From: a bacterium
GTDB taxonomy: Bacteria > Patescibacteriota > Dojkabacteria > SC72
Assembly: GCA_022840695.1 (NCBI GenBank)
Contig: JALHDC010000001.1
Span: forward strand, 2,516-66,515
Reading direction: 5' to 3'
DNA: 64,000 nucleotides
Of the stretch, positions 9,684 through 47,955 are shown piece by piece. Numbering within the stretch: the stretch's first letter is position 1; each line of letters starts with the position of its first letter. The notes beneath the pieces are model-generated. The model did not search any database and was not told the origin of the DNA. It saw only the letters and a program-made list of their open reading frames with translations. The position numbers were made by a program, and so were the translations under genes.

Positions 9684-11558
9684 CTACTTAAACAATGTCT
9701 CAAACTCATCTCCAGTCACAACTTCTTTCTCAAGAAGGATATCTACTAATTTTTTAACATATTCCTTCTTTTCATTTAACAAATTTTTTGCATCTACATA
9801 TGCCTCGTCAATTAATCTTTTAACCTCAAAATCTATCATTCTTGCAGTATCTTCACTATATTCTTTCCCTCCACCATATGAATATCCCAAATGCTTTGTT
9901 TCTTCTAAATCCCCGTACTTAACCATACCTAACTTCTCACTCATTCCGTAATCCATTATCATTTCTCTAGCAATATTAGTGATTTGTTGAATATCGTTAG
10001 AAGCACCTGTAGATATATCTCCTAGGAAAATCTCCTCAGCTACCCTACCACCAATCCCCGTTCTTAACCAAGCCAACATTTGCTTTCTGTAAAGGAACTT
10101 TCTATCTTTCTCTGGTAAATATACGGTAACTCCACCACTTGCACCCCTGGATATTACAGATATCTGTTCAACAGGATCCGCTCCAGCGGTAAATTTTGCA
10201 ACTATTGCATGCCCTGCCTCATGATATGCTGTTTTTTCAATATCCTCTAATTCTTTGTCACCCTTTTTCTTCCTTCCTAATTTAACCTTAAGGTATGATT
10301 CCATTAGGTCTTCTTGAGATATTTTCTTCCTTCCCTCTTTCACTGCCATTATTGCAGCCTCATTTAAAAGATTCTCTAAATCTGCACCCGAATATCCGAC
10401 TGTTTTCTTAGCTAAAGTATTTAAATCTGCACTCTCTTCAAATTTCTTGTTCCTTGCATGAACATCCAGTATGGCTCTCCTACCGGTAAAATCAGGCATT
10501 GGAACAACCACAGTTCTATCAAATCTTCCTGGTCTTAAAATTGCTGGATCCAAAACATCCGGTCTATTTGTAGCAGCAAGAATTATGACGTTTTCTCTCT
10601 CTTCTAAACCATCCATCTCTACCAAGATCTGATTCAATGTTTGCTCTCCAGCTCCTGAATGGAGTACTGTTCCTCTCTTCTTAGCGACTGCATCTATTTC
10701 ATCTATGAAAACTATACATGGAGATGTTCTTCTTGCTTTTTTGAAAAGATCTCTAACCCTAGAAGCACCTGCACCAACAAGCATTTCTTCAAATTCTGAA
10801 CCAGAAGTATGGAAAAATGGAACTCCTGCTTCACCAGCTACTGCCTTAGCTAAAAGAGTCTTACCAGTTCCTGGATCTCCCGCTAAAAGTACACCTCTTG
10901 GTATTCTGGCTCCCATATCTCTATATTTTTTTGGACTTTTAAGAAAATCTATTATCTCCGTTAACTCTTCTTTTACTTCCTCTATTCCTGCAACATCATC
11001 AAATGTTATCCCAGTTCTCTTTCCCATTAACAACCTGGCCTTACTCTCTCCAAAATCCAGAATTTTACCTCCAGAAGCTTGCATGTTCTTTACCATAACA
11101 TACACTAAGATTAAGGCGGCACCTAGAAATATGAATGTAAGGACATCTCCAAATGTAATACCTAATTTAGGCTCGTAAAAATCATTTTCCAAATCCTTAA
11201 CATTTATTTCAGCATTTGTAAGGACTTGATAGAAATCGGTATCTGATGGTAACAGAGCATACCTTCTAGACAAAACCTCTACCCCATCAACTTCTTTCTT
11301 GTTCTCCAAAAGCACCATATCATCTTTCAAAATGATTTTCTCATATTTTTTCTCTGAAATTTCGGTTACTATCTGACTCACAGAGACCTCTTCCCCTTTG
11401 TAATTGATTACCTTGATTAAATATATTCCTGCAGTTAAAAGTACAGAGAGGATTACAGTAGCAACCAAACTTGGTACTCCCATCTTCCTTTTAGGAATAC
11501 TTCTTATATCTATCTTAACAACTTTGCTCTCAGCATTATCTTTTTTAGATTTATCCAT
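9684..11558 (-). CDS. ftsH: ATP-dependent zinc metalloprotease FtsH
   Basis: N-terminal TM, AAA Walker A GDPGTGKTLLAKAVAGEAGVPF, second region of homology, HEXXH zinc motif HEAGHAIVA; 624 aa. Confidence 0.95.
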   Translation of the reverse strand: MDKSKKDNAESKVVKIDIRSIPKRKMGVPSLVATVILSVLLTAGIYLIKVINYKGEEVSVSQIVTEISEKKYEKIILKDDMVLLENKKEVDGVEVLSRRYALLPSDTDFYQVLTNAEINVKDLENDFYEPKLGITFGDVLTFIFLGAALILVYVMVKNMQASGGKILDFGESKARLLMGKRTGITFDDVAGIEEVKEELTEIIDFLKSPKKYRDMGARIPRGVLLAGDPGTGKTLLAKAVAGEAGVPFFHTSGSEFEEMLVGAGASRVRDLFKKARRTSPCIVFIDEIDAVAKKRGTVLHSGAGEQTLNQILVEMDGLEERENVIILAATNRPDVLDPAILRPGRFDRTVVVPMPDFTGRRAILDVHARNKKFEESADLNTLAKKTVGYSGADLENLLNEAAIMAVKEGRKKISQEDLMESYLKVKLGRKKKGDKELEDIEKTAYHEAGHAIVAKFTAGADPVEQISVISRGASGGVTVYLPEKDRKFLYRKQMLAWLRTGIGGRVAEEIFLGDISTGASNDIQQITNIAREMIMDYGMSEKLGMVKYGDLEETKHLGYSYGGGKEYSEDTARMIDFEVKRLIDEAYVDAKNLLNEKKEYVKKLVDILLEKEVVTGDEFETLFK

Positions 11559-11587
11559 CTTGAGGAAACATAATTTAATATTTTTAA

Positions 11588-11661
11588 TAGTGGGAACTGG
11601 GATCGAACCAGTGACCTTGGGTTTATGAATCCCATGCTCTAACCAACTGAGCTATCCCACC
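11588..11661 (-). tRNA. tRNA-Met (anticodon CAT); elongator-like, Ile2/lysidine type not excluded
   Basis: Revcomp folds as a cloverleaf: acceptor GGTGGGA/TCCCACT (G1-U72), D arm GCTC-AGTTGGTTA-GAGC, anticodon loop TTCATAA, T arm ACTGG-TTCGATC-CCAGT. No encoded CCA. Confidence 0.75.
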
Positions 11662-11704
11662 AGAGATTCTTCCTATTATATCAAAGGAGATGGTAAAAAT
11701 ATAT

Positions 11705-12332: not shown

Positions 12333-12407
12333 TGGTTGCGGGGGTCGGACTCGAACCGACGACCTCCAGGTTATGAGCCTGACGAGCTTCCACTGCTCTA
12401 CCCCGCG
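12333..12407 (-). tRNA. Initiator tRNA-fMet (CAT), CCA encoded
   Basis: Revcomp CGCGGGGTAGAGCAGTGGAAGCTCGTCAGGCTCATAACCTGGAGGTCGTCGGTTCGAGTCCGACCCCCGCAACCA. C1xA72 mismatch, anticodon loop CTCATAA and strong similarity to the bacterial initiator consensus. Confidence 0.8.
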
Positions 12408-13912: not shown

Positions 13913-14009
13913 TTGATAAATATCCGATAGAATATTAAATTTCTTTGTAAATTTCGCTATAGTCATTGGTATACTAACATTTCTCAACTCACTAAAGGTC
14001 TGGAGGGTG

Positions 14010-14083
14010 TGGGAATAGGTGGACTCGAACCACCGACCACGGCTTTATAAGAACCGCGCTCTAACCACCTGAGCTATATTCCC
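14010..14083 (-). tRNA. tRNA-Ile (anticodon TAT/UAU)
   Basis: Revcomp GGGAATATAGCTCAGGTGGTTAGAGCGCGGTTCTTATAAAGCCGTGGTCGGTGGTTCGAGTCCACCTATTCCCA. Anticodon stem CGGTT/AGCCG, loop CTTATAA. No encoded CCA. Confidence 0.65.
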
Positions 14084-14117: not shown

Positions 14118-16646
14118 TTAGAAGCCCATTGGAGGAAATCCTTGCGAAGGTTGTTCCACTTTCTCCTCTACCTTATCCAATTGAGATCTTACCCTTATAT
14201 CATCATTTACTACATTTAAATCTCTTCCATACTTTCTTCTTGATATTTCTTTCACTATATTTGCAACTTCTTTGTTTACAGGAAGATCAAATCCAGAATC
14301 TGGGTACTGTGGACCGTATAGAGTGTTAAGTGAGAAAGGAGAAGGATATATGCCATTGTTTAGAAGTTTAACATATGCATGTCCCATTCCTTGGTTAACG
14401 ATATCCATTGAACTGATATACGATTCAAATTGTGTCTCCAAAAATTCCGCATCTTCAGCACTGCATCTGAATATGAATAGCGATCCTACATTTCCAAATA
14501 CTGCATTTCTTATATCTTCTGGTAATTGCCCAATATATTGGTGAGCTAATGTAAGGTTTAATCTATACTTTCTTGCTTCTGAGAGTATAGAATTAAATTC
14601 TTCTGTAGCAAAGTTTTGGAATTCATCGGCATAGAAGAAGAAGTCTTTTCTTTCTTTTTCGTCCATATCTTCTCTACTTAGGGCAGCAGCTAACATTTTT
14701 TGGACCAAGAGTAGACCTAAGAACGACATATTTTCTTCCCCTAATCTACCTTTTGAAAGGTTAACTATTAAAATCTTGCCTGAGTCCATAACTTCTCTGA
14801 AATCGAAAGATGATTGTGATTGTCCAATTATATTTCTAATGGCTAAGTTTGTAGTGAATTTGTCAAACTTAGATATAAAATATGTAAGAGCTTCTGATTT
14901 TGTCTTTTTGTCTGTTTTAGCTACCTGATCTGTCCAATATCTACGAACCAGTTCATCCTGTATCAAGGGTAACCAATGACTCATAACCCAATCTTCATCC
15001 TGGAGTATTCTTACAACCTCTATTAAAGTAGAGTCCTTTTTAGACATAGCGGTAAGCATAGAGTTCCTTACAGCCTGTTGGAATGCTGGTCCTGCATATC
15101 CTTGGTTATGTGGATCAAAGAGACGGATGAGGAGAGCTATGAAGCTGTTCACTATTTGATGCTTATGCTGTTCATTGTAATACTCCATGATATTGATACC
15201 AAATGGTCTTTCAAAATCTCCAGCATCAAAATATATTACATCTTCTGCCCTATCCGCAGGAATTCTCTCTAATATCATTTCTGCAGCTTGTCCGTGTGGA
15301 TCTATGAAGCAGACACCATCTCCATTATGAATATCCTGAAGTATCATTCTAACCATGAGCCATGATTTACCTGTACCTGTTTGTCCAAGTATATATGAAT
15401 GTCTTCTTCTGTCATCCCTCTTAAAACAGATAGCTTTCTTTTTTCCCCTAAAGTAGTTATTCCCTACCCATATTGTATCTTTCGAATTTATATCCGAGCT
15501 TATCTCGTTACTTGCAATCAGTTCTTTTGAGAGTAACCAGTTAACATTGGGAGTAGAGATATCTTTATTTGGGAAGTGATACAGAGCTGCTAGCTCCTCA
15601 AGGTTTAAAACTGTTTTTTCATCTTCGGGTGTTCTTCTGTATATTACATCATATACAAATTTCTTTTCTTCATTTTTGGAAATTTTTCTTTTTTTCAACC
15701 TATTAACACCTGGATTACTGTATTGGTCAAAAGCCCCGATAATATTGTCTAAATGCATTTTTGCAATTCCTTTATCTGGAGCACTAGTGATTATACGAAT
15801 TTCAGCCATAAGACCCGGTTTGGAAACCTTTTTACTAATTGCCTGCAACTTCTCTTGAGAGACATTTATTCTCTTCTTTTCAGGATCTGAATTATTACTT
15901 TCAACTTTCTGCACAAACTTTTCACCATTTTTCTGCCAACTTGAATCTGTAGGAGCAATGACTATCTGTACCAAAGCTCCTTCGTCTTCAGACATTTTAC
16001 TCAAGGTACTAAGTACATTTGCCATTGGGTCTCCAGTGAAATTTTCAGCCACCCTTATTGGACAGTACGAATCTTCATCTAGACCTAATTTTGCATAAGC
16101 AATTTCAGATTTAGGTGCGAATATATTGTACTGTTTGACTATTGCTACATCAGCATCTTGGTATGATCCTAATATTTGTTTTTCAACCAAATCAGCAAGT
16201 TTTCTAGGACAATGAACAAAGAATCTGATTTCTCCAGGAAGTCCTACTATTTCAAAACTAACACTATTGTTTACACTGAATTTCTCTGCAAGACCTTCCC
16301 CTTTTCCTCCTATTCCATAGAGATTGGCAAACATTTTCTCAGCAACTCCCAACTCTACTTCATTATTTCTCGGGACTCTAACTTCCATTAATACCCCATC
16401 CATAGCTTTTTCATCTCTATCCTTCTTTTTTAATTTTTTCTGTATATACAGAAATCCAACGACTAAACCTCCTACCAAGAGAAGAAAAAATATTATCCAG
16501 CCGTATGGAATATTACGAGTTGCTTGATTGTATAAATCACCGTATGTATCTTTAGGATATTCAACATTAGAACCAGTCTCTATTTCTGGTATTTCTTTTG
16601 GTACAGGACCAATTAATTGTGAATATGTAAATTCCCCCGGATTCAT
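14118..16646 (-). CDS. Type IV secretion-type ATPase, VirB4/VirD4 (TraC/TrwB) superfamily, with N-terminal TM anchor
   Basis: 842 aa. TM IPYGWIIFFLLLVGGLVVGFLYI. Walker A ILGQTGTGKS followed by CFIDPHGQ (compare TrwB GATGTGKS...IVDPNGD). Walker B FFFYADEFQNF. Arginine finger/Q motif EARKYRLNLTLAHQ (compare VirB4 RKxN...ATQ). Walker A lies near residue 430 of 842, proportions like VirB4. Confidence 0.65.
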   Translation of the reverse strand: MNPGEFTYSQLIGPVPKEIPEIETGSNVEYPKDTYGDLYNQATRNIPYGWIIFFLLLVGGLVVGFLYIQKKLKKKDRDEKAMDGVLMEVRVPRNNEVELGVAEKMFANLYGIGGKGEGLAEKFSVNNSVSFEIVGLPGEIRFFVHCPRKLADLVEKQILGSYQDADVAIVKQYNIFAPKSEIAYAKLGLDEDSYCPIRVAENFTGDPMANVLSTLSKMSEDEGALVQIVIAPTDSSWQKNGEKFVQKVESNNSDPEKKRINVSQEKLQAISKKVSKPGLMAEIRIITSAPDKGIAKMHLDNIIGAFDQYSNPGVNRLKKRKISKNEEKKFVYDVIYRRTPEDEKTVLNLEELAALYHFPNKDISTPNVNWLLSKELIASNEISSDINSKDTIWVGNNYFRGKKKAICFKRDDRRRHSYILGQTGTGKSWLMVRMILQDIHNGDGVCFIDPHGQAAEMILERIPADRAEDVIYFDAGDFERPFGINIMEYYNEQHKHQIVNSFIALLIRLFDPHNQGYAGPAFQQAVRNSMLTAMSKKDSTLIEVVRILQDEDWVMSHWLPLIQDELVRRYWTDQVAKTDKKTKSEALTYFISKFDKFTTNLAIRNIIGQSQSSFDFREVMDSGKILIVNLSKGRLGEENMSFLGLLLVQKMLAAALSREDMDEKERKDFFFYADEFQNFATEEFNSILSEARKYRLNLTLAHQYIGQLPEDIRNAVFGNVGSLFIFRCSAEDAEFLETQFESYISSMDIVNQGMGHAYVKLLNNGIYPSPFSLNTLYGPQYPDSGFDLPVNKEVANIVKEISRRKYGRDLNVVNDDIRVRSQLDKVEEKVEQPSQGFPPMGF

Positions 16647-17027: not shown

Positions 17028-17471
17028 TTATCTTTCATACTTTCTCTTCTCGTACAGCAGTTCTCTTTCCAAATCTCTCTCCTTCTCAACTCTCTTCTTT
17101 TCATAGTTCTTCTTCCCCTTACCAAACCCAACCTCTACCTTAACCTTGCCTCTTGTAGTATACACACTGACAGGAATTAATGTAAGATTTTTCTGTTTTA
17201 ATTTTGCATCTATCTGTACAAGCTCTTTTCCTGTTACTAACAATTTTCTAGATTTTTTAGAATCATAATTCATGCTGCCATCAAATTGATATTTAGGGAT
17301 ATCTCCATTTACAAGCCATAACTCTCCCCCAACTATCTTTACATATGCATCAGACAGATTAATTCTTCCAGATTTTATTGATTTAACCTCAGCTCCTGTT
17401 AATATGATACCGGCTTCAAATGTATCTAAAATTTCGTAATTGAAAAGTGCTTTTTTATTCTTTATTTTCAT
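17028..17471 (-). CDS. smpB: SsrA-binding protein SmpB
   Basis: ALFNYEILDTFEAGIILTGAEVKSIK...GRVKVEVGFGKGKKNYEKKRVEKERDLERE matches the SmpB family throughout, including the basic C-terminal tail. Confidence 0.9.
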   Translation of the reverse strand: MKIKNKKALFNYEILDTFEAGIILTGAEVKSIKSGRINLSDAYVKIVGGELWLVNGDIPKYQFDGSMNYDSKKSRKLLVTGKELVQIDAKLKQKNLTLIPVSVYTTRGKVKVEVGFGKGKKNYEKKRVEKERDLERELLYEKRKYER

Positions 17472-17483
17472 GCGAGTATTATA

Positions 17484-19760
17484 CTACAAACCAAGCTTCC
17501 AGATTACTGAACCATCAAGTATATATATATTCTTTTCAGAGAAATCCACAACAAAATTTCTTACATCAGAAAGAACCGAATCCTTCTCTCCTCTGTAGAC
17601 ATACTGGAAAAGAAGAAGTATTTGGTTAGGATGCCTACTATCTACCCCTGATTCTATTGGTTTTTCAAATCTAAGAAATCTTCTCCCTTCAGAATCAAAC
17701 AGATACAAACCAGAATCTAATGTATCTCCTGTAAAAGCCTTACTCAAGTTTCCATAATTTCCATCAAATCCTAAAACACTCAAAGGAGCTTCGTTATACT
17801 GATTTTCATAGAAACTGTAGTTAAATCTCAAAAGGTGTGGCTCTTCAGAAATTGTTACATAGATACTAAGATCGGCTATTAAATCCGTTGATTTTTCAAA
17901 TCTATCATCAACAATATATGCATAGGTCAGACCATATCTATCACCATATGCCGAGGTTGATTTTAACAAAGCCTTTCTATCTTTAGACATGAAATAGATA
18001 TTGTCACTCGTAGTCCAAGCAACCATCTCTGTAATTTCTGCTGACTTAATATCATTAACACCCAAACCAGATAGCTGAATAAATGGGGAAAACCATCCTT
18101 CCTCGTTAAAGGCTGCTTTCAACATCCCCTGCTTTTCATCATATACATACACTCCGTTAACACCAACATATACCTGTGAAGGAGAAGTAACTAAGCCATC
18201 ATTATCTGGAAGAGTCTTAACACTTTTATCATACAAAGAAACTCTATGCACAGCTTTTCTCCCTTTATCTGCAACAAACAAATATTCATTACCATAACTA
18301 TCTAAGGATATAGCTAAATCAACAATATCGGAGCCCTCTCCAAATGATAATCTACTATCAAGATAGTTAACCATTGTTCCTCCCTCTACAAACCCTACTC
18401 TCTTGTAAAGAGAATCACCCACCTCCAAAACCCTCTCTCTTAAGGTGTGAAATTTCTCAGTATCCTCATCATTCAATTCCCCAGTTATTTCTGACAATTT
18501 CTTCTCTGCTTGGAATAGGTATGTCTCAGCAGAAGAGCTATCCGTTACAAAACTATTTTCACTTTTACTCAGTAATTCTTCAATTTGAACAAACGATTCA
18601 TTAGCTAATTTACTAATTTCTTTCGATTTCTTAGCTTTAACTGTGAAATTAATACCAAGAAGAATCAATGTCAAAATAATTAAAAACATGAAGAGAAGTT
18701 TAAATCTCTTTCCACGAAGATCCCTGACTTTGTAATCATCTATTCGCATTCCTGCTACACCAACTGGTTTTCTTCTTCCAACCCTAACCTCCGAGAATTT
18801 AGAAGCAACTCTTTTGTACCATCTCTTCTTGCCTAAGTTCTCTACAATATTTTCCGAAAGGGAGTTCCAAATATTTTTGAAGGAAGCCACAACTTTGCCC
18901 CAAAATGGTTCCACCTTCCCCCATATTCTATTGAAAATTTTTTTAACCTTAGAGAATTTTGAACTCAAATCTAATTTTTCCTTAAAATCAACAAGAACTC
19001 TTTGCTCCTGAGGTTTCTTAATCTTCTCTACTCTAGCAATAGGTTTTAACAAATTTTGAGCACTTTCTTTAACAGCATTAACTGAATCCTTGATAGTAGT
19101 TCTTTCACTTACAATCTTCTTCTGTCGCTCTTCTTTACTAAAATACAATAAAGCTTTTGTACCTTCTAAAGAACTACCAATAGCATTTAACATCTTTACG
19201 AAATCTTCTTTCTTCTTTAACACTTCCAATCTAGAGACATAGTTATTCAATATATCTGAAGAAGAAACCATTAGTAGGTCCCCTTCCTCAAGAACAACTC
19301 CTGCTGTATTTGCTTTTTTCTCTTCAAGAACTTTACCAATATCTACAAAAGAACCTTTCTTAAATGTAAATATGTCGTTCTCTCCAAAGATTCCAACATA
19401 TACTCCCTCCTCCTTTACCAAAACAATTGTAAAACTGATATCTACCCCAATCTCTTCTAATTCAATATCGTTAGCAATTAGGTCTTTTACCTTTTTGACA
19501 CCAGAGGATATTGAATCTTTCAAAGATTCGTTTGTTGTAGATGCATTGGAATACAGATATCCATCAATAATACTGTCCCAGACAAATTTTGATATTCTTT
19601 CGGATTTTACACTTTTCTCCGAAGATATTTTTAATAATGCATATATATCACCCTTTTTATCTACCTTTTTTTCTGTACTATTAAAAAAATGCCTGAATAC
19701 CTTTATAAAGGAATTACTATCCTTACTATTGGATACATATTGTTGAGCAGTTATTTCCAT
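17484..19760 (-). CDS. Bitopic membrane protein: cytoplasmic degenerate PP2C-like domain, one TM, large extracytoplasmic beta-rich domain
   Basis: 758 aa. Central TM FKLLFMFLIILTLILLGINF. The N-terminal region resembles PP2C/SpoIIE folds (GVYVGIFGENDIFTF...VVLEEGDLLMVSSSDIL) but lacks the metal-binding Asp residues. The C-terminal ~390 aa is Gly/Tyr/Asp-rich and repeat-like (possible propeller). Domain calls are tentative. Confidence 0.55.
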   Translation of the reverse strand: MEITAQQYVSNSKDSNSFIKVFRHFFNSTEKKVDKKGDIYALLKISSEKSVKSERISKFVWDSIIDGYLYSNASTTNESLKDSISSGVKKVKDLIANDIELEEIGVDISFTIVLVKEEGVYVGIFGENDIFTFKKGSFVDIGKVLEEKKANTAGVVLEEGDLLMVSSSDILNNYVSRLEVLKKKEDFVKMLNAIGSSLEGTKALLYFSKEERQKKIVSERTTIKDSVNAVKESAQNLLKPIARVEKIKKPQEQRVLVDFKEKLDLSSKFSKVKKIFNRIWGKVEPFWGKVVASFKNIWNSLSENIVENLGKKRWYKRVASKFSEVRVGRRKPVGVAGMRIDDYKVRDLRGKRFKLLFMFLIILTLILLGINFTVKAKKSKEISKLANESFVQIEELLSKSENSFVTDSSSAETYLFQAEKKLSEITGELNDEDTEKFHTLRERVLEVGDSLYKRVGFVEGGTMVNYLDSRLSFGEGSDIVDLAISLDSYGNEYLFVADKGRKAVHRVSLYDKSVKTLPDNDGLVTSPSQVYVGVNGVYVYDEKQGMLKAAFNEEGWFSPFIQLSGLGVNDIKSAEITEMVAWTTSDNIYFMSKDRKALLKSTSAYGDRYGLTYAYIVDDRFEKSTDLIADLSIYVTISEEPHLLRFNYSFYENQYNEAPLSVLGFDGNYGNLSKAFTGDTLDSGLYLFDSEGRRFLRFEKPIESGVDSRHPNQILLLFQYVYRGEKDSVLSDVRNFVVDFSEKNIYILDGSVIWKLGL

Positions 19761-22729: not shown

Positions 22730-23122
22730 TTAGCTGATAATGTTTTTTACAAATTCTATTATATATGGAAGAAACACTATTAATCCTGTTGTTACAGAAA
22801 CAAAAGCACTCACTAAAACAGCTCCAGCACTAACATCTTTGGCATATTTAATATTTACCTTATACTCCAAAGAAACAGTATCACACAATGCCTCTATTGC
22901 ACTATTAACTGTTTCAGATATAAAGACCATGGATATTACTAAGCTTAATGCTATCCAATCTGTATGAGAAATTTGGAAAAAGAACCCAGCAAAGACAACC
23001 AAGAGTGCAAAGATGAGATCTATTCTAAAATTTCTTTCGTTCTTAAATATCAGCTTAATACCATTCCTAGCATGCCCTTGGCTTTTAAAAAAATTTTCTG
23101 CCTGATATTTATGATTTTTCAT
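22730..23122 (-). CDS. dgkA: Diacylglycerol/undecaprenol kinase (DgkA family)
   Basis: Three TM helices and the conserved SETVNSAIEALCD motif of prokaryotic DAGK. Confidence 0.8.
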   Translation of the reverse strand: MKNHKYQAENFFKSQGHARNGIKLIFKNERNFRIDLIFALLVVFAGFFFQISHTDWIALSLVISMVFISETVNSAIEALCDTVSLEYKVNIKYAKDVSAGAVLVSAFVSVTTGLIVFLPYIIEFVKNIIS

Positions 23123-23442
23123 TATTGGGCAATGAAGTCTAAAACTGCATTAAGTACTGTAAATATAACCATTACAAAGATAAAGCCAATAACAGCCCAT
23201 GTTAATGTCCCTTGAGCTTGCTTCACCCTAGCAGGATCCCCTGCAGATATCATCCACATATATCCTCCCTGTATTATGAATATTACACAGATCAAACCTG
23301 CCAATGGAAAAAGGTAACTTAAAAGTTTATCTACCAATGTAGCCAATGTCCCATCTGTTAACCTAGGTGGTTCCTGGGCAAACACCGGAGAAACTAGAAG
23401 AAGTCCGGAGAAAAAATATATATATTTAAATATACTTTTCAT
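23122..23442 (-). CDS. VirB2/TrbC-like small membrane pilin-type protein, paralog 1
   Basis: Signal peptide (…LLLVSPVFAQ), then two hydrophobic helices separated by the conserved loop GGYMWMISAGDPARVKQAQGTL. Confidence 0.55.
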   Translation of the reverse strand: MKSIFKYIYFFSGLLLVSPVFAQEPPRLTDGTLATLVDKLLSYLFPLAGLICVIFIIQGGYMWMISAGDPARVKQAQGTLTWAVIGFIFVMVIFTVLNAVLDFIAQ

Positions 23443-23717
23443 TATTTAGTAGTTAAAACTTCATTTATTACAAATTCTATAATTGTTGGGGATATAAATA
23501 CAAGTATTAAACCTAAAAGAGAGAATGCCATTGATCTTGTAGCATCTTTTATCTTATCCTCATCACCAAAAGAAAGTATGAACTTAAAGCCAGAAATGAC
23601 TAATGATATAACCACTATTACTACGGAGAATGAGATGGCAAAGTTTATTATAAAGAATACAAATTCTGTTAAATTCTCATACCCCGTGTTGTTAAGAATA
23701 CTTAAATCCACCAACAT
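23442..23717 (-). CDS. VirB2/TrbC-like small membrane protein, paralog 2
   Basis: Two hydrophobic helices with loop SFGDEDKIKDATRSM; start overlaps the stop of paralog 1 (translational coupling). Confidence 0.5.
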   Translation of the reverse strand: MLVDLSILNNTGYENLTEFVFFIINFAISFSVVIVVISLVISGFKFILSFGDEDKIKDATRSMAFSLLGLILVFISPTIIEFVINEVLTTK

Positions 23718-23741
23718 ACGGGTATTAATTAAAAATATCTA

Positions 23742-24086
23742 TTACTTAAGAACGTTTGTTAATACAAACTGTACTAAGATTACGGAGATAAAACAGATAA
23801 CCAAACCAACGATTGCATATGTCAATGATTTTGTTGCTTTTTCTATCTTTGATTCATCTCCAGCTGCTGTGATATATGTATATCCACTAGCTATCAATAT
23901 TGCAACACATACTAAAGCTGCTAAACCAATTACTAAGTTCAAAACATCTTTAACCCATGGTAAAAAATCTTTACTTAATGGACCTTCTGGTAAATACTCT
24001 GTACCTGTTTGTGCTAAGACTGCAGAAGCTAAGTAGAGATTAGAAGCAACTCCTGAAACTACTGCTAATATCTTGGTCATTTTCAT
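23742..24086 (-). CDS. VirB2/TrbC-like small membrane protein, paralog 3
   Basis: Signal peptide (…ASAVLAQ) plus two helices and loop ASGYTYITAAGDESKIEKATKSL. Confidence 0.55.
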   Translation of the reverse strand: MKMTKILAVVSGVASNLYLASAVLAQTGTEYLPEGPLSKDFLPWVKDVLNLVIGLAALVCVAILIASGYTYITAAGDESKIEKATKSLTYAIVGLVICFISVILVQFVLTNVLK

Positions 24087-24161
24087 ATATTCTGTTTATT
24101 AAATATTATATTAATTGTGATAATTATATATAAAGGATTAGTTTTATGCAATACTAATTCT

Positions 24162-24458
24162 TTATAACCCCAATATCTTTCCAATAACAAAATCTATTAT
24201 TGTTCTAGCTAAAAATACAATAACCAAACCTATGATTGCAGCTGTTATACCCTTTTGACCTTTTTCGATCTTTTCAGGATCTCCTGCAGCAGTTATGAAC
24301 ATATACCCTGAAGCTACTAAGATAATTACAGCAACTAAAGCTGAAAATCCTACAAAGAAATCAATTGCAGTACCCACTTTTGAATTCAAAACGGAATCAA
24401 GAGTAGGATCTCCCCAATTTATTAATTTATCTCCAATAAACTGAGTTATATTTGTCAT
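24162..24458 (-). CDS. VirB2/TrbC-like small membrane protein, paralog 4
   Basis: Loop ASGYMFITAAGDPEKIEKGQKGI between two hydrophobic helices. Confidence 0.55.
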   Translation of the reverse strand: MTNITQFIGDKLINWGDPTLDSVLNSKVGTAIDFFVGFSALVAVIILVASGYMFITAAGDPEKIEKGQKGITAAIIGLVIVFLARTIIDFVIGKILGL

Positions 24459-24474
24459 ATTCGTATATTAATAA

Positions 24475-24825
24475 TTAATTATAAATATCCAAACCCAATG
24501 TATTACTGATTATCAATAGTATTGCAACAGAAAGTAATACTACTAAAAAACCAATAATTGCATTAGTTAAAATTTCCTTCCCTTCTTTTAATTTGTCCGG
24601 ATTTCCTTGACTAGACATAAGCATATATCCAGCATATACCACTAAAACAACCACACATATCACAGCCAAAGGAACAGCGATATCTACGATGGCATCTATA
24701 AGTTGATTCTCATCGGCAATCCCACCACTCTCCAATTTACCTAAACTTTCACTTAGTTTTGAACCCAAATCCTGAGCATATGCTTTTTGCACTATTAAAT
24801 CATGAATTTTACTAATAATTTCCAT
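24475..24825 (-). CDS. VirB2/TrbC-like small membrane protein, paralog 5
   Basis: Loop AGYMLMSSQGNPDKLKEGKEIL between two hydrophobic helices; most divergent copy. Confidence 0.5.
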   Translation of the reverse strand: MEIISKIHDLIVQKAYAQDLGSKLSESLGKLESGGIADENQLIDAIVDIAVPLAVICVVVLVVYAGYMLMSSQGNPDKLKEGKEILTNAIIGFLVVLLSVAILLIISNTLGLDIYN

Positions 24826-33468: not shown

Positions 33469-33888
33469 TGGTGGAGACGACGGGAATTGAACCCATGTCC
33501 AAAAGCATTGTTTAGCACCATGTACAAACATAGTTAACCTTGTATAGTAAGATATTTCTAGAAAGGTTAACAAAAAGAAATATCCCCTCGATTATGTTTC
33601 TAAGTTAGTTACCCTATCGATCAAATAACCAACCGTACCCTGATAACGACTATCTATAATCCCTCATCAGGGAAAAGGATAATAGACACTAACTAAAATA
33701 TTTAGTTAGACCTTATGCAAAGTTAAATGCATAAGCTGGAGCAGCAAAAGCAGCTCTTAACTTAGCAGTAAACTCATTAGCAAAGGCGACAATCTTATTT
33801 TCTACACTTAAGCTGTGTGTTGAATAACGACTCAACGAACGGTTTGTGATAACTAAACGCAAACTTCTGTCGAAAGCCTTACGTCCCC
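33469..33888 (-). ncRNA. ssrA: tmRNA (ssrA)
   Basis: 5' GGGGACGUAAGGCUUUCGAC (conserved UUCGAC). 3' tRNA-like end GGACAUGGGUUCAAUUCCCGUCGUCUCCACCA with CCA encoded. Acceptor pairing includes G3-U70 (Ala identity). Internal open frame ...AFANEFTAKLRAAFAAPAYAFNFA-UAA is a candidate tag. smpB is present at 17 kb. Confidence 0.8.
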
Positions 33889-33919
33889 ATATTGATAAAG
33901 AACATTGGTATTATACCAT

Positions 33920-34216
33920 TTATTTATATACTTTTCTACTTCCAGAATGCCCCCCTATGGTTAATAAAAGAATAATATTCCCATCCTCAAACCTCCAAAG
34001 TATTCTAATATCTCCACTAACCCTAGAAGTGTACGTCCGGGCACCATAGGAACTATACACGATATGCGTTCTTAATCCTGGATTTGAAGGATCCTTTCTT
34101 AATTTTTTCAATACAGAAACTATCCTAAAAGCTAACTCCCTATTTTTCTTAGTTAACCTTTTAAACTCCTTTTTATATTTTGCTGTTAAATGTATTACAA
34201 AATTATTCTTCTCCAT
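33920..34216 (-). CDS. RelE/ParE-family type II toxin
   Basis: 98 aa; YGARTYTSRVSGDIRILWRFEDGNIILLLTIGGHS is a typical RelE/ParE C-terminal region; overlaps the upstream small ORF by 14 nt. Confidence 0.65.
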   Translation of the reverse strand: MEKNNFVIHLTAKYKKEFKRLTKKNRELAFRIVSVLKKLRKDPSNPGLRTHIVYSSYGARTYTSRVSGDIRILWRFEDGNIILLLTIGGHSGSRKVYK

Positions 34217-34508
34217 TTATCAAGGATGAGAAATAATCATCTATTTCTTTTGAGTTTCTTAAAGCAATCGTTTTCCCCTCCTTGTACTCCTTTATTCCAT
34301 CTTCTATATCCTTTGCCAATTGGGGATCATCTATATACTCCTCAGAACCAAGATGAAAACCTTCAACATCCTTGGTAAGAACATATCTCACATACTCAGG
34401 AAAGGAATATCCATATATTCTCGCCTTAGATTCAGCAATATCCATCAATCGACTTGGAAATGTTATCTGTCTTGTAACACTTTTTTTATAGTCTATACTC
34501 TTAGTCAT
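34203..34508 (-). CDS. Putative cognate antitoxin (101 aa)
   Basis: Immediately upstream of and overlapping the toxin; acidic C-terminus; N-terminal region could form an RHH/DNA-binding fold (inference). Confidence 0.45.
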   Translation of the reverse strand: MTKSIDYKKSVTRQITFPSRLMDIAESKARIYGYSFPEYVRYVLTKDVEGFHLGSEEYIDDPQLAKDIEDGIKEYKEGKTIALRNSKEIDDYFSSLINGEE

Positions 34509-38706: not shown

Positions 38707-39378
38707 ATGAATATACTAATTATAGAGAATTCAAAGACTCTTTCCCAACTTCTTTTTAAAACTCTTAACTCCTACGGATATTCTGTATCTGTTGATGATA
38801 AAAATTTTTCAAGTCAAAACCTAATTAAAAGTAAAATATTTGATGTATGCATAATGAATACTAATTTAGGTGATACTTTAAGCAAGAAGATATTGAAATA
38901 TATAGTAGATAAATCAACAAATACTAAAATATTAGGGATCTGTAATAGAGGTAGTTGGGTAGAAAAGGTTGAATTTTTAAAAAGAGGTGGAGATGATGTC
39001 CTTACCTACCCTTTTCCAATACAAGAGTTACTAGCTAGAATTCAATCTTTAATGAGAAGACCTAAGAATTATGTAGATAAAAACCTATATATTGGAGACT
39101 TTATGTTGGATTTAGATAATAAGTCTGTATATAAAGACAATGCGGATATGGATATTAGAAAAAAAGAGTATGATCTTTTTGAATATTTAGTCAGGAATAA
39201 AGACAGGGTTATATCAAGATGTGAACTCCTCGATCATGTATGGGATTATAGAGAGTACATAGGGTCTAATACGATAGATGTACATATAAAAAGGTTAAGA
39301 GATAAACTTCAAGATAAGACTTTAATAGAAACTGTCCATGGAGTTGGATACCAAGTAAAAGAGCCTAAAGCATCATAG
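38707..39378 (+). CDS. OmpR/PhoB-family winged-helix response regulator (orphan, atypical receiver)
   Basis: C-terminal trans_reg_C-like region (KKEYDLFEYLVRNKDRVISRCELLDHVW...IDVHIKRLRDKL...VHGVGYQV). The N-terminal receiver-like domain does not show a clear acid pocket; no kinase gene adjacent. Confidence 0.65.
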   Translation: MNILIIENSKTLSQLLFKTLNSYGYSVSVDDKNFSSQNLIKSKIFDVCIMNTNLGDTLSKKILKYIVDKSTNTKILGICNRGSWVEKVEFLKRGGDDVLTYPFPIQELLARIQSLMRRPKNYVDKNLYIGDFMLDLDNKSVYKDNADMDIRKKEYDLFEYLVRNKDRVISRCELLDHVWDYREYIGSNTIDVHIKRLRDKLQDKTLIETVHGVGYQVKEPKAS

Positions 39379-40492
39379 GCATGACTAGATGGACAAAACT
39401 ATCATCCCCGTCTATCTTAAATACTCCTGGTTTAACTGCTTCTGAACACTCAAAAAGTATATTTTCGGAATCTAAGTGATTAAGTATGTCAGAAAGAAGT
39501 TTTGCACTAAAAGCTATCTTTAGATCCTCTCCCTCTACTTTACAACCAAAGTTACTCTCATTTTTACCTAAATCAGCTTGAGTAGCGGAAAGAGATATTT
39601 GATCTGATTTAGAAGATATATCTAATATCATCTTATTTCCTAAAACAGATCTAGCAATAATATTGACTATCTTTAAAGAATTTAGAAATACTTCTCTCTC
39701 TATACTACATTTAGTTTTAAATCCTGTAGGTATAATCTGTTTATATTCAGGAAATTCACCATCTATTAACCTAGATATTAAATCTATATCTCCAACTCTA
39801 AACATAACTTGATTCTTATCCTCTATTAAATAGATTGATAATAGTTCATCAGAATCATTACTTGTCTCAGAGATTATATATGAAAGCTCTATTAAAGCTC
39901 TTACAGGAATTAAGAAACTCCTATTCTTAGATGTTTTTCCAACCTTAATAACCTGTCTAGATAATCTCAAACCATCAGTTGCTATTAAAGCCACCTGATC
40001 ATCCTCTATTTCAAATTTGACACCTGTTAATACCGGTTTAATATCATCAGTAGCAGCAGCAAAAGCAACTCTATTAATGGCCATAACTAAATCTGCTTTA
40101 TTAATCTGAATAAACGGATCTTCCTTCTTTTCTACAGATGGAATTGTAGGAAAATCATCAGAAGGCATAGTATTAAAACTTGCAGTATTGTTAGATGTTG
40201 ATATATTGAAATTTTGTTTTTCAACTTCTACCTGAACAACCTCTTCTGGAATTGAATTTACAAAATCTGTTAATTGTTTAGCAGGTATAGTTACTTTTCC
40301 CTCATCTGTAATATCAGCACCTATCCAGGTATTGATACTTAGTTCTAAATCAGTTGCCTTGATAATCAATTTATTCTTTTCACTTTCGAATAGTACATTG
40401 TTTAATATTGGAAGACCAGGTTTATTACTAACTACCCTACTTACAATATTCAAATATTTTGAGAATGTATCTTGATTACAAGAAAACTTCAT
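39365..40492 (-). CDS. dnaN: DNA polymerase III beta sliding clamp
   Basis: MKFSCNQDTFSKYLNIVSRVVSNKPGLPILNNVLFE is typical of the DnaN N-terminus; 375 aa; located downstream of dnaA. Confidence 0.9.
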   Translation of the reverse strand: MKFSCNQDTFSKYLNIVSRVVSNKPGLPILNNVLFESEKNKLIIKATDLELSINTWIGADITDEGKVTIPAKQLTDFVNSIPEEVVQVEVEKQNFNISTSNNTASFNTMPSDDFPTIPSVEKKEDPFIQINKADLVMAINRVAFAAATDDIKPVLTGVKFEIEDDQVALIATDGLRLSRQVIKVGKTSKNRSFLIPVRALIELSYIISETSNDSDELLSIYLIEDKNQVMFRVGDIDLISRLIDGEFPEYKQIIPTGFKTKCSIEREVFLNSLKIVNIIARSVLGNKMILDISSKSDQISLSATQADLGKNESNFGCKVEGEDLKIAFSAKLLSDILNHLDSENILFECSEAVKPGVFKIDGDDSFVHLVMPMML

Positions 40493-40935
40493 ATATGTAT
40501 TTTAATATTTTAATTGAGGCAGTTATGTTATTCATTTTAACATTTTTTTATACCAAAAAGAATGAATCTGTCTAATTCTTAATTAATATATATAAATAGT
40601 AATAGTTATAGTAGTAAGTGTGTATATGTAGATAATTATAGAAAGTACTGAAAGAAACATTTCCAGAACAGACTTTTCTTTCATTTTTCTCCTGTGAATA
40701 ATTTAAGTATTAAATTTTCCTTTAACTATGTTAAAAATCTTTTATTAAAAAGATTTCTTACTGTGGATTACTTTGTGGTATATGTGTTGGATAATTACTT
40801 ATATCTTGTGGGTATCGATATTTGCGTAAATCTTTATATACCAATGTTTCTACGAAATTAAAAGATCTTTAGAGTGTGGGTAATATGATAACTTATCAGT
40901 AGATATACAGTACTTATCCACATACTTATCCTCAC
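40493..40935. promoter_or_regulatory. Candidate oriC: AT-rich dnaA-dnaN intergenic region with DnaA boxes
   Basis: Perfect TTATCCACA at 40914..40922; one-mismatch boxes at 40763..40771 (TGTGGATTA), 40875..40883 (TGTGGGTAA) and 40926..40934 (TTATCCTCA); very AT-rich stretch 40500..40740. Further boxes lie upstream of dnaA at 42491..42499 and 42550..42558. Confidence 0.55.
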
Positions 40936-42405
40936 CTAACTTCTTAATATCTTAATACACTTATCGATCTTTTCATCTGTTCTACGGTCATTCCCTCTTA
41001 AGGCTTCTATTTTTTCGTATGCATGTATAACTGTTGTATGGTCCTTTCTATTTACTTCTTTTGCTACCCTTTCAAGTGGCATATCCAACTCCTTTCGAAG
41101 TATATACATTACAATCTGTCTGCACTTTGCTACATATGCTGTTCTTCTATTTCCCTTTATTTCATTTGGTTTTACATCAAACACCTCTGATACTGTTTTT
41201 ATGACCTTGGTAGGTGTAATTCTTTTTCTCTTTGTATCAATATCTATTTGCAGTATTTTTGCTACATCCTCTTCTGTTGGATTAATACCTAACTTGAAAA
41301 GAGATACAACTTTAGTTAGTGCTCCCTCTAGCTCCCTTATATTGCTTTCTACATTTTTGGCTATCAATTCTATATATTCATCAGGTATTGAGTAGTTCCT
41401 ATCTGTTAAACACTGTCTTAGTATGGCTATTCTTGTTTCGTAATCTGGTGCTTGGATATCCGCAACCATCCCTCCTTCAAATCTAGATCTTAGTCTATCA
41501 GTGATATTCTTTATTTCCTTAGGAGGTCTATCTGATGCTAGTATTATCTGTTTATTAGCTTGGTATAGGGTATTAAAGGTATGAAATAGCTCCTCTTGTG
41601 TTCTAGGGTATGTTTCCACGAACTGGACATCGTCTATGATTAAAAGGTCCACTGCCCTGTATTTATTCCTAAAATCCTCATTTCTTTTTGTCCTAATAGC
41701 CTCAACCATTTCATTTAGGAATTGTTCTATTGATATGTAAACAACCTTTTTATTTGAATCTTTTCTCAATATCTCATTTCCAATAGCTTGCATAAGGTGT
41801 GTTTTTCCTACACCTGTCTCTCCGTAGTAGAAAACAGGATTATATGCATTTCCAAGATCTTCTAAAACTGCCTGTGCTACAGCCTCTGCTAATCTATTAT
41901 TGGAACCAACTATGAAGTTAGAAAAAAGATACTTAGGGTTTAGGTGTGACTCTTCTAATGACTTTTTATACAAGTGTTCCTCTTTCTCAGCTGAGGAAAA
42001 AAGATCTAGGACCTCTTCTTCCTTTTCCGAACCTGGATTATGATACTCATATCTTGGTTTACTACTTTCTTTAGATTTTTCCCTTAAGTTTATTTCCAAT
42101 TCAAAATTCCTATCACAAGTTTTTTGAAGAGCATTTTTAATTGCATACTGATAATCTTTTAAAATCTTCTCTCTTTTATATGCAGCATCACAAGACATCT
42201 GCACTACTCCATTATTTATTGACTCTATATATACATTCCCAAAGAGACCACCAAATTCTCTCACCCCGATTGCTTGTTTCAAATACTCTTGAGCTACTTT
42301 CCATACTTCATCTGGATCCCATTCATTATCGTTATTACTCACAACAGTAGTGTTACTTGGTATCTTTTCAAAATGATTTTTAAAGTCTGCTTTGTTCATT
42401 AGCAT
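40936..42405 (-). CDS. dnaA: Chromosomal replication initiator DnaA
   Basis: Walker A GETGVGKTHLMQAIGNEI, Walker B LLIIDDVQFV, sensor/arginine regions, C-terminal DNA-binding helix VAMYILRKELDMPLERVAKEV...HTTVIHAYEKI. Confidence 0.95.
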   Translation of the reverse strand: MLMNKADFKNHFEKIPSNTTVVSNNDNEWDPDEVWKVAQEYLKQAIGVREFGGLFGNVYIESINNGVVQMSCDAAYKREKILKDYQYAIKNALQKTCDRNFELEINLREKSKESSKPRYEYHNPGSEKEEEVLDLFSSAEKEEHLYKKSLEESHLNPKYLFSNFIVGSNNRLAEAVAQAVLEDLGNAYNPVFYYGETGVGKTHLMQAIGNEILRKDSNKKVVYISIEQFLNEMVEAIRTKRNEDFRNKYRAVDLLIIDDVQFVETYPRTQEELFHTFNTLYQANKQIILASDRPPKEIKNITDRLRSRFEGGMVADIQAPDYETRIAILRQCLTDRNYSIPDEYIELIAKNVESNIRELEGALTKVVSLFKLGINPTEEDVAKILQIDIDTKRKRITPTKVIKTVSEVFDVKPNEIKGNRRTAYVAKCRQIVMYILRKELDMPLERVAKEVNRKDHTTVIHAYEKIEALRGNDRRTDEKIDKCIKILRS

Positions 42406-47271: not shown

Positions 47272-47955
47272 TTATATAACTTCATCAATAAATCCCATTT
47301 GAAGTGCTTGTTCAGATGTTAGATATGTTCCAACACCCATGTTTGCTTTCATTAAATCTTGAACACTTTCAGGAGTCATATCCTTTCCTGCTTTATTAAC
47401 CCTGTCCGCAACTATTTCCGAATATAATGTATATAGGGCTCGAGATTCTGCAATTTGGTGTTCTATTCTGTCGACTTCTCCCTCAACATATGTACTTATA
47501 GGATGGAAAAGCATTCTTGAATTTTCTGGCATCTGTCTAATATCGCCTGCCTGTATAATAAGAGCTCCCATCGACATTATCGGTCCATATCCTGTGATTG
47601 TTATTGGAACATTATGCTTTCGGGAGAACACTCTTAAAAGATCGTGAACTCCAAAGCCTGAATTCACAGAACCTCCAAAAGAGGAGAAATTAACCTGAAG
47701 GTGACTGAGGTCATTCTCATCATTTTCTATCTTGTATAAATCTGTGCTTACCTGTTTAAACATCTCTTGGTCTACTCTTCCATTGACAGTAATCTGGGGT
47801 TCTTGCCTGCGTAACCTTTCTGGAGAAATAATCCCATCGTATCTTTCATAAAATCCTTTTGGAACTTCTTGGCTCTTTCCAATCTCCTTTATTGCATCAC
47901 CGGATAAAGATGTTTGTCTATCTATGTACTTTGGGTAATCTTCTTGTCCTGTCAT
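47272..47955 (-). CDS. ClpP-family (S14) serine protease-like protein with N-terminal extension
   Basis: NFSSFGGSVNSGFGVHDLL...ITGYGPIMSMGALII...SRMLFHPIS aligns to the ClpP active-site regions (Ser in MSMG, His in FHP). No clpX adjacent. Lies inside the tRNA-Ser direct repeats, so a phage prohead-protease-type origin is possible. Confidence 0.7.
   Translation of the reverse strand: MTGQEDYPKYIDRQTSLSGDAIKEIGKSQEVPKGFYERYDGIISPERLRRQEPQITVNGRVDQEMFKQVSTDLYKIENDENDLSHLQVNFSSFGGSVNSGFGVHDLLRVFSRKHNVPITITGYGPIMSMGALIIQAGDIRQMPENSRMLFHPISTYVEGEVDRIEHQIAESRALYTLYSEIVADRVNKAGKDMTPESVQDLMKANMGVGTYLTSEQALQMGFIDEVI

Follow-up and report, generated by a model that had tools for sequence, protein, structure and literature searches.

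The segment 33469-33888 on the minus strand of the window, which is the whole stretch of 64 kb analysed here, is with high confidence the ssrA gene of a standard one-piece tmRNA in an uncultured bacterium with a small genome from the Dojkabacteria (WS6) lineage of Patescibacteria/CPR, and the tag encoded by it is most likely a non-ClpXP degron. On sequence grounds the identity of the tmRNA is clear, and nothing speaks against it. The gene is routine and is found by the standard tools. Its sole unusual feature is the long tag ending in ...YAFNFA, which is common to the whole lineage.

ARAGORN reports a single tmRNA in the window, and a search of the whole window against Rfam places the RF00023 match at the same coordinates, where it scores 102.1 bits (gathering score 47; E 8.9e-39). 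This match is aligned end to end, over model positions 1-374. The sequence-only reading had proposed fixing the ends of the gene with these two programs, and both give 33469-33888. It had named no strand; the gene lies on the minus strand, so that the window position is obtained as 33889 minus the RNA position n. The 5′ end of the tmRNA is GGGGACGUAAGGCUUUCGAC and its 3′ end is ...GGGUUCAAUUCCCGUCGUCUCCACCA, with the CCA encoded in the gene. The earlier assignment as ssrA, made from the alanine identity pair G3-U70 and the encoded CCA, is upheld by ARAGORN, by RF00023, by the sequence and by the pair counts alike. All of the features by which a one-piece tmRNA of RF00023 can be recognised from sequence were found, namely the score, the tRNA-like domain, the tag frame, PK1-PK4 together with helix 2, and a gene for SmpB. 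The gene, its predicted promoter and the gene of its protein partner are located as follows:

33469-33888, minus strand: ssrA gene, mature one-piece tmRNA of 420 nt (ARAGORN and Rfam RF00023)
33910-33938, minus strand: promoter-like site, TAGAAA, 17 nt, TG-n-TATAAT (consensus scan, 10/12 matches)
17028-17471, minus strand: smpB, for the protein that tmRNA requires as its partner (Pfam PF01668, 158 bits, E 1.8e-46)

The promoter-like site, a putative promoter, carries an extended -10 element, and 22 nt separate its end from the mature 5′ end of the tmRNA downstream. A permuted (two-piece) or intron-containing tmRNA is ruled out by the contiguous standard form given by both ARAGORN and Rfam. The insertion of a genomic island at the 3′ end of the gene was also rejected, as no second copy of the 3′ 23-mer is found in the window when up to 3 mismatches are allowed.

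The minus strand immediately upstream of ssrA holds, at 33920-34508, a 98-aa ORF with weak similarity to the toxin YafQ, overlapping an ORF of 101 aa. Both of these ORFs are present in several relatives, and they may form a toxin-antitoxin pair. Upstream of smpB, at a distance of 12 nt and on the same strand, lies a gene for a 758-residue protein (17484-19760, minus strand) which has one central hydrophobic segment and matches none of the Pfam or NCBIfam models. The pair of smpB and this gene is also found in two Logan contigs.

The structure was examined in an alignment of 39 distinct tmRNAs, for which the full structure was written and the standard pairs were counted column by column in the acceptor stem, helix 2 (in four segments), PK1, helix 5, PK2-PK4 and the T arm. 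Standard pairs occupy 89.4% of the 4033 pair cells, compared with only 40-48% in a control in which the partners were slid by 1-3 columns. Changes on both sides of a pair are seen in 58 of the 104 pairs, and none of the 500 shuffles reached any of the observed pairing measures. The elements of the structure occupy the following positions:

33882-33888, minus strand: 5′ strand of the acceptor stem, GGGGACG, RNA 1-7, with G3 at 33886 (pairs with RNA 410-416)
33842-33869, minus strand: 5′ strand of helix 2, RNA 20-47 (pairs with RNA 360-389)
33819-33841, minus strand: PK1, RNA 48-70, hairpin 53-57/66-70 and second stem 48-51/58-61 (pair counts)
33689-33709, minus strand: helix 5, RNA 180-200, a hairpin just 3′ of the stop codon (9 pairs in the window sequence)
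33638-33688, minus strand: PK2, RNA 201-251, stems 201-213/226-238 and 217-223/245-251 (pair counts)
33588-33634, minus strand: PK3, RNA 255-301, stems 255-265/276-286 and 269-273/297-301 (pair counts)
33533-33586, minus strand: PK4, RNA 303-356, stems 303-312/331-340 and 318-324/350-356 (pair counts)
33500-33529, minus strand: 3′ strand of helix 2, RNA 360-389 (pair counts)
33480-33496, minus strand: T arm, RNA 393-409, stem AUGGG/CCCGU and loop UUCAAUU (pair counts)
33469-33479, minus strand: 3′ strand of the acceptor stem, CGUCUCC, RNA 410-416, followed by the encoded ACCA at 33469-33472 (U414 at 33475)

In the tRNA-like domain, the 5′ strand of the acceptor stem is invariant in 39 of 39 relatives, and in all of them G3 pairs as G-U with U414, the equivalent of U70. 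The T arm is paired in 100% of its cells, with one pair altered from A-U to G-C. Helix 2 is paired in 89-99.6% of cells and has 9 pairs changed on both sides (helices 2-4 of the pair count). The stems of PK2 are paired in 94% and 100% of cells, those of PK3 in 89% and 100%, and those of PK4 in 99.7% and 73%, with 8 and 5, 8 and 4, and 9 and 4 pairs altered on both sides, respectively. The hairpin of PK1 reaches 96%, and 4 of its 5 pairs are altered on both sides. The second stem of PK1 is paired in 60% of the cells of the alignment and has only about 2-3 pairs in the window sequence: C48-G61 is replaced by U-A in 3 sequences, G49-C60 is invariant, and the outer two pairs are mostly unpaired, with versions of 4 pairs visible in four divergent relatives within the alignment. 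Helix 5 is paired in 57.5% of cells over the alignment, with 4 pairs altered on both sides. Both helix 5 and the second stem of PK4 are perfect in the window sequence, and their low pairing in the alignment is suspected to come from differences of register between clades. The sequence-only reading had staked the assignment on the folding of PK1-PK4; all four pseudoknots are backed by covariation, the second stem of PK1 being the weak one.

The tag frame and the sequence preceding it are placed as follows:

33713-33805, minus strand: tag frame, RNA 84-176, resume codon GUA, 30 codons and a UAA stop (ARAGORN and translation)
33806-33810, minus strand: UAAGU, the five bases before the resume codon (invariant in 39 of 39 sequences)

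ARAGORN gives the encoded tag as VENKIVAFANEFTAKLRAAFAAPAYAFNFA, and the translation of 33713-33805 on the minus strand agrees with it. Since the charged alanine is counted together with the 30 coded residues, the added peptide has 31 residues. Following the established pathway of trans-translation (PMC3985003), the tmRNA would be charged with alanine, act with SmpB and enter stalled ribosomes, whereupon Ala followed by VENKIVAFANEFTAKLRAAFAAPAYAFNFA would be appended to the nascent chain. The tag is conserved in its protein sequence in two places: it opens with the block V[EK]NK[ILV][VN]AF and closes with A-P-x-Y-x-[FY]-N-F-A, and the linker between these blocks is variable.

ARAGORN, the Rfam alignment and the substitution patterns support GUA as the predicted resume codon. 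The GUA at RNA 84 is invariant in 39 of 39 sequences. The U at -5 and the A at -4 upstream of it correspond to U85 and A86 of Escherichia coli. It is the region from -6 to +1 that sets the reading frame of tmRNA (PMC3985003). The early codons of the tag vary synonymously (AAT/AAC, AAG/AAA, ATT/ATC/ATA, GCC/GCT). The entropy at the first, second and third codon positions is 0.40, 0.13 and 0.62 over codons 1-7 and 0.55, 0.40 and 0.88 over codons 8-30, so that the order of third over first over second position holds from codon 1; upstream of GUA a clear periodicity is absent. The difference in tag length between clades is an in-frame indel of 12 nt. Such synonymous variation at third positions, the periodicity starting at codon 1 and the in-frame indel together indicate translation from GUA.

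The other start considered is the GCC (Ala) codon at RNA 102, which would leave 24 coded residues and attribute the conservation upstream of it to the RNA level only. GCN is the commonest resume codon, and the AUUGUC-GCC found here is similar to the AUAGUC-GCA of E. coli. With this start, however, position -4 would be U in place of the conserved A, and the preceding triplet is AAC, not GUC, in 8 relatives. The six codons upstream of GCC vary mainly at synonymous third positions, as coding sequence does, and both ARAGORN and the Rfam alignment place the resume codon at GUA. A start at GCC is therefore very improbable, and it was rejected on the upstream synonymous variation, the invariant UAAGU-GUA and the agreement of ARAGORN with Rfam. 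The C-terminus of the tag is identical with either start. In the sequence-only reading the peptide was given as ...AFANEFTAKLRAAFAAPAYAFNFA: its frame is retained, as is the C-terminus ...AYAFNFA ending at the same UAA in ARAGORN and in translation, and its start has to be moved, being six codons late with respect to GUA (Val). The covariance-model alignment keeps the resume codon in this frame and not in one that would give ...LAA.

The relatives of the tmRNA were collected in two ways. The first, a scan of species-representative genomes, used a pattern of the T arm and acceptor stem with the variable stem pairs left free, and was thus not selected by the tag. It returned 119 loci, mostly from unrelated bacteria, among which ARAGORN found 8 complete relatives with tmRNAs 74-96% identical to that of the window. 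All 8 of these genome-derived tags follow V[EK]NKIVA...AP.Y.[FY]NFA. The same scan provides a baseline, in which 90 of 96 unrelated tmRNAs have a tag ending in Ala-Ala and the median length is 10 codons. The second, a scan of metagenomes, used the tag end A-P-x-Y-x-[FY]-N-F-A-stop as its pattern, and its set is therefore selected by the tag. It gave 57 loci, of which 49 belong to the same tmRNA family (38 complete tmRNAs, and 11 copies truncated or missed by ARAGORN); the remaining 8 are not similar to the tmRNA family and probably match the pattern by chance. The further copies of the family thus number 57, made up of the 8 complete ones from genomes and the 49 from metagenomes, and their tags have the form V[EK]N...AP.Y.[FY]NFA. 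Distinct tags number 26 in total, each with 26 or 30 codons, to which one read-through variant of 32 codons is added. An example of stop-codon loss is seen in a Dojkabacteria MAG (L078, 3797-4218, minus strand), in which TCA replaces the TAA stop of the tag, adding Ser-Val to give ...NFASV; a near-identical metagenome copy, L133, keeps the TAA stop.

The labels of the 8 MAGs are mixed: 3 are Candidatus Dojkabacteria (UBA5232 and two SBF912 isolates), 4 are 'uncultured Candidatus Saccharibacteria' and 1 is 'uncultured bacterium', and the MAGs closest to the window carry the Saccharibacteria label. The Saccharibacteria-labelled L035, L070, L076 and L086 share the tmRNA family with the Dojkabacteria-labelled L053, L078 and L082, and the tag of L070 is identical to that of L053. 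The Saccharibacteria label is for this reason held to be unreliable, and at least one of the two sets of labels is wrong or very coarse. The gene order at ssrA, with a SpoU-type methylase, membrane proteins, a response regulator and dnaN, is conserved across the family; over 15 related contigs show ssrA, the SpoU methylase, the response regulator and dnaN in this order. DnaN is 72% identical to that of the window in UBA5232, which has the same gene order, and 96% identical in the nearest relative, L122. The tmRNA family and the gene order held in common with Dojkabacteria-labelled MAGs place the host among CPR bacteria, in the Dojkabacteria (WS6) lineage, and the CPR membership implied by the sequence-only reading is thereby supported.

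The window holds several other features. The genes dnaN and dnaA lie at 39365-42405 on the minus strand, and the cumulative GC skew has its minimum at about 40-42 kb; their position and this minimum place the replication origin about 7 kb from ssrA. A tRNA-Ile with the anticodon UAU, uncommon in bacteria, was found by ARAGORN at 14009-14083 (minus strand), with two CAU-anticodon tRNA genes near it at 11587-11662 and 12333-12407 (both minus strand). A type IV secretion pilin (TrbC/VirB2-like) is present as four paralogues in tandem at 23122-24825, and a VirD4/TraG-like coupling ATPase is encoded at 14118-16646, all on the minus strand. An ATP-dependent DNA ligase of the archaeal/eukaryotic type, with all three domains, is encoded at 4689-6524 (minus strand) beside DNA polymerase I.

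The fate of a tagged protein depends on the protease by which the tag is read. A ClpXP-type degron ends in a C-terminal Ala-Ala, typically L/V-A-A, and this terminal Ala-Ala is critical for the reading of E. coli ssrA-like degrons by ClpX (PMC10862746). The tag described here ends in N-F-A, and a Phe-Ala end where Ala-Ala is usual speaks against recognition by the classical ClpXP. According to reviews, the ALAA ending is kept by bacteria in general, with Mycoplasma as the exception, and there the change goes along with the loss of ClpXP. The tags of Mycoplasma have AFA at their end, a departure ascribed to the loss of ClpXP/ClpAP/Tsp (PMC3985003), and in cells of M. pneumoniae the tag is cleared by Lon and not by FtsH (PMC8403727). 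From the tag without terminal Ala-Ala and the analogy to Mycoplasma we infer a protease other than ClpXP. Such a tag hints at a degron for an AAA+ protease other than the classical ClpXP, Lon or FtsH, both of which are candidates by analogy. Two genes of the window are relevant here:

9684-11558, minus strand: ftsH, candidate tag protease (TIGR01241, 688 bits with a cut-off of 600; Pfam AAA and Peptidase_M41)
47272-47955, minus strand: predicted divergent ClpP-fold serine protease (weak hit to Pfam CLP_protease, 64.8 bits)

No AAA+ protease gene other than ftsH was found in the window, and ftsH itself was absent from the sequence-only reading. None of lon, clpX, clpA and sspB was found among the ORFs scanned in the 64-kb window. 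In about 525 kb of related loci, searched by phmmer with the FtsH and ClpP-like proteins of the window and by motif scans for DGPSAG, GYVG and Walker A, neither Lon nor ClpX was seen; these loci mostly cover the same neighborhood, so the result is uninformative.

The product of 47272-47955 was described in the sequence-only reading as an orphan ClpP-family protein without ClpX. The ClpP fold and the absence of clpX from the window hold; a canonical ClpP it is not. The protein scores 38.8 bits with TIGR00493, for which the cut-off is 308.6, and falls under every NCBIfam ClpP cut-off; the best NCBIfam model, that of a ClpP-related head-maturation protease, is also under its cut-off. When it is aligned with solved ClpP structures, the Ser and His match and the position of the catalytic Asp is taken by Gly. 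All of 11 homologues retain Ser128 and His151, whereas conservation is lacking at the Asp position (Gly/Asn). The protein also has an N-terminal extension of about 50 residues. In related contigs the gene lies among housekeeping genes, and neither the window nor the four related contigs L179-L182 have clpX or another Clp ATPase gene adjoining it. It is treated here as context only.

The sequence-only reading would make the tag a Lon-specific degron, the result of a Mycoplasma-like switch in a genome that had lost ClpXP. Lon-directed degradation is a reasonable hypothesis by this analogy, and we consider a Lon-specific degron a serious possibility, somewhat short of an even chance. The tag is long, with 31 residues compared with 27 in M. 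pneumoniae (PMC8403727), and its C-terminus is made of aromatic residues, Ala and Asn, with a Phe-Ala end and without terminal Ala-Ala. The absence of clpX from the window and the non-canonical nature of the sole ClpP-fold gene there point the same way. The two conserved blocks recall reports from Mollicutes, where degradation is better with the full 27-residue degron of M. florum than with only the last 10 residues of it (PMC10695633) and where multipartite interactions between tag and Lon are credited to Ge & Karzai 2009 in PMC11986505. Speaking against Lon, the lon gene was not seen in the window or in the approximately 525 kb of related loci, and the motif of the tag differs from the N[FY]AFA of Mollicutes. 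The presence of FtsH is a further objection, as FtsH of E. coli also degrades ssrA-tagged proteins (PMC3985003). FtsH could even be the main tag protease, recognising at the membrane the C-terminal tail with its non-polar, aromatic residues, a role that we consider rather doubtful. FtsH is a weak unfoldase, and this weighs against such a role. In its favour, the AAA+ protease genes seen for this organism, in the 64-kb window, come down to one, a canonical ftsH (688 bits), and the degradation of ssrA-tagged proteins by FtsH in E. coli is credited to Herman et al. 1998 in PMC3985003. In M. pneumoniae, the closest studied analogue, the depletion of Lon stabilised tagged proteins and the depletion of FtsH did not (PMC8403727).

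A Clp-type machine, with clpX or clpC encoded elsewhere and possibly with the divergent ClpP-fold protein, might instead have co-evolved to bind ...NFA-COOH. As the tag retains Ala, with its free carboxylate, in the last position, ...NFA could be read by a ClpX particular to the lineage or by some other unfoldase, and the absence of clpX covers 64 kb, a small part of the genome. The ClpP-fold protein, with its invariant Ser128 and His151, is conserved in the lineage in a housekeeping context, yet it lies far under all ClpP equivalog cut-offs, matches best a ClpP relative of the head-maturation type, lacks a conserved triad Asp and has no Clp ATPase gene adjoining its own in the window or the four related contigs. 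Given also the critical role of the terminal Ala-Ala for ClpX in E. coli (PMC10862746), a Clp-type machine of this kind is quite unlikely. A broader proposal, which we put forward tentatively as possible rather than probable, is that Dojkabacteria independently re-specified the ssrA degron, second after Mollicutes. The two-block tag, V[EK]NKIVAF, a linker and AAPxYx[FY]NFA, would then direct proteins to Lon or FtsH, perhaps with a lineage-specific adaptor acting on the N-terminal block, ClpXP having been lost.

The conserved ...YA[FY]NFA tag in a CPR lineage would provide a second natural test of the co-evolution of degron and protease in reduced genomes. It could also offer an orthogonal pair of degron and protease, like the Lon system of M. 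florum used in synthetic biology. If the degron is indeed re-specified, the protease repertoire could be read from the termini of tags throughout CPR. A literature search for tmRNA tags or protease content of Dojkabacteria or Patescibacteria found nothing.

Compared with the standard tmRNA (RF00023; SsrA of E. coli and B. subtilis), the molecule has the same tRNA-like domain with G3-U70 and CCA, helix 2, PK1, a resume-codon region, a stop-ended tag ORF, helix 5, PK2-PK4 and the SmpB partner. It differs in having a tag of 30 codons instead of about 10, GUA (Val) instead of GCN as its predicted resume codon, ...YAFNFA instead of ...[LV]AA at the C-terminus of the tag, and a very short second stem in PK1. 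A start with Val is also known from the tag of Helicobacter pylori. The tags of Campylobacterota, organisms which have ClpXP, share with the present tag a P-A-Y-A element near the C-terminus, as in ANNTDYRPAYAVA of the Sulfurovum loci, and some of them have an end other than Ala-Ala (AVA, RVA). Those tags, however, have 13-14 residues and end in small aliphatics and Ala, without NFA.

The tags of Mollicutes (Mycoplasma pneumoniae and Mesoplasma florum; about 27 residues, degraded by Lon) are likewise long and rich in Asn, Ala and aromatic residues, with a Phe-Ala end, with conservation extending beyond the last few residues and with a small, reduced genome. In Mollicutes the absence of ClpXP and the presence of Lon are documented, whereas here the search for clpX and lon covers the 64-kb window and about 525 kb of related loci only. 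The lineages are unrelated, the present one belonging to CPR. The resemblance to the Mycoplasma tag that had been noted from the sequence extends to the length, the composition and the Phe-Ala end, and it stops at the motif, which is YA[FY]NFA in the present lineage and N[FY]AFA in Mollicutes.
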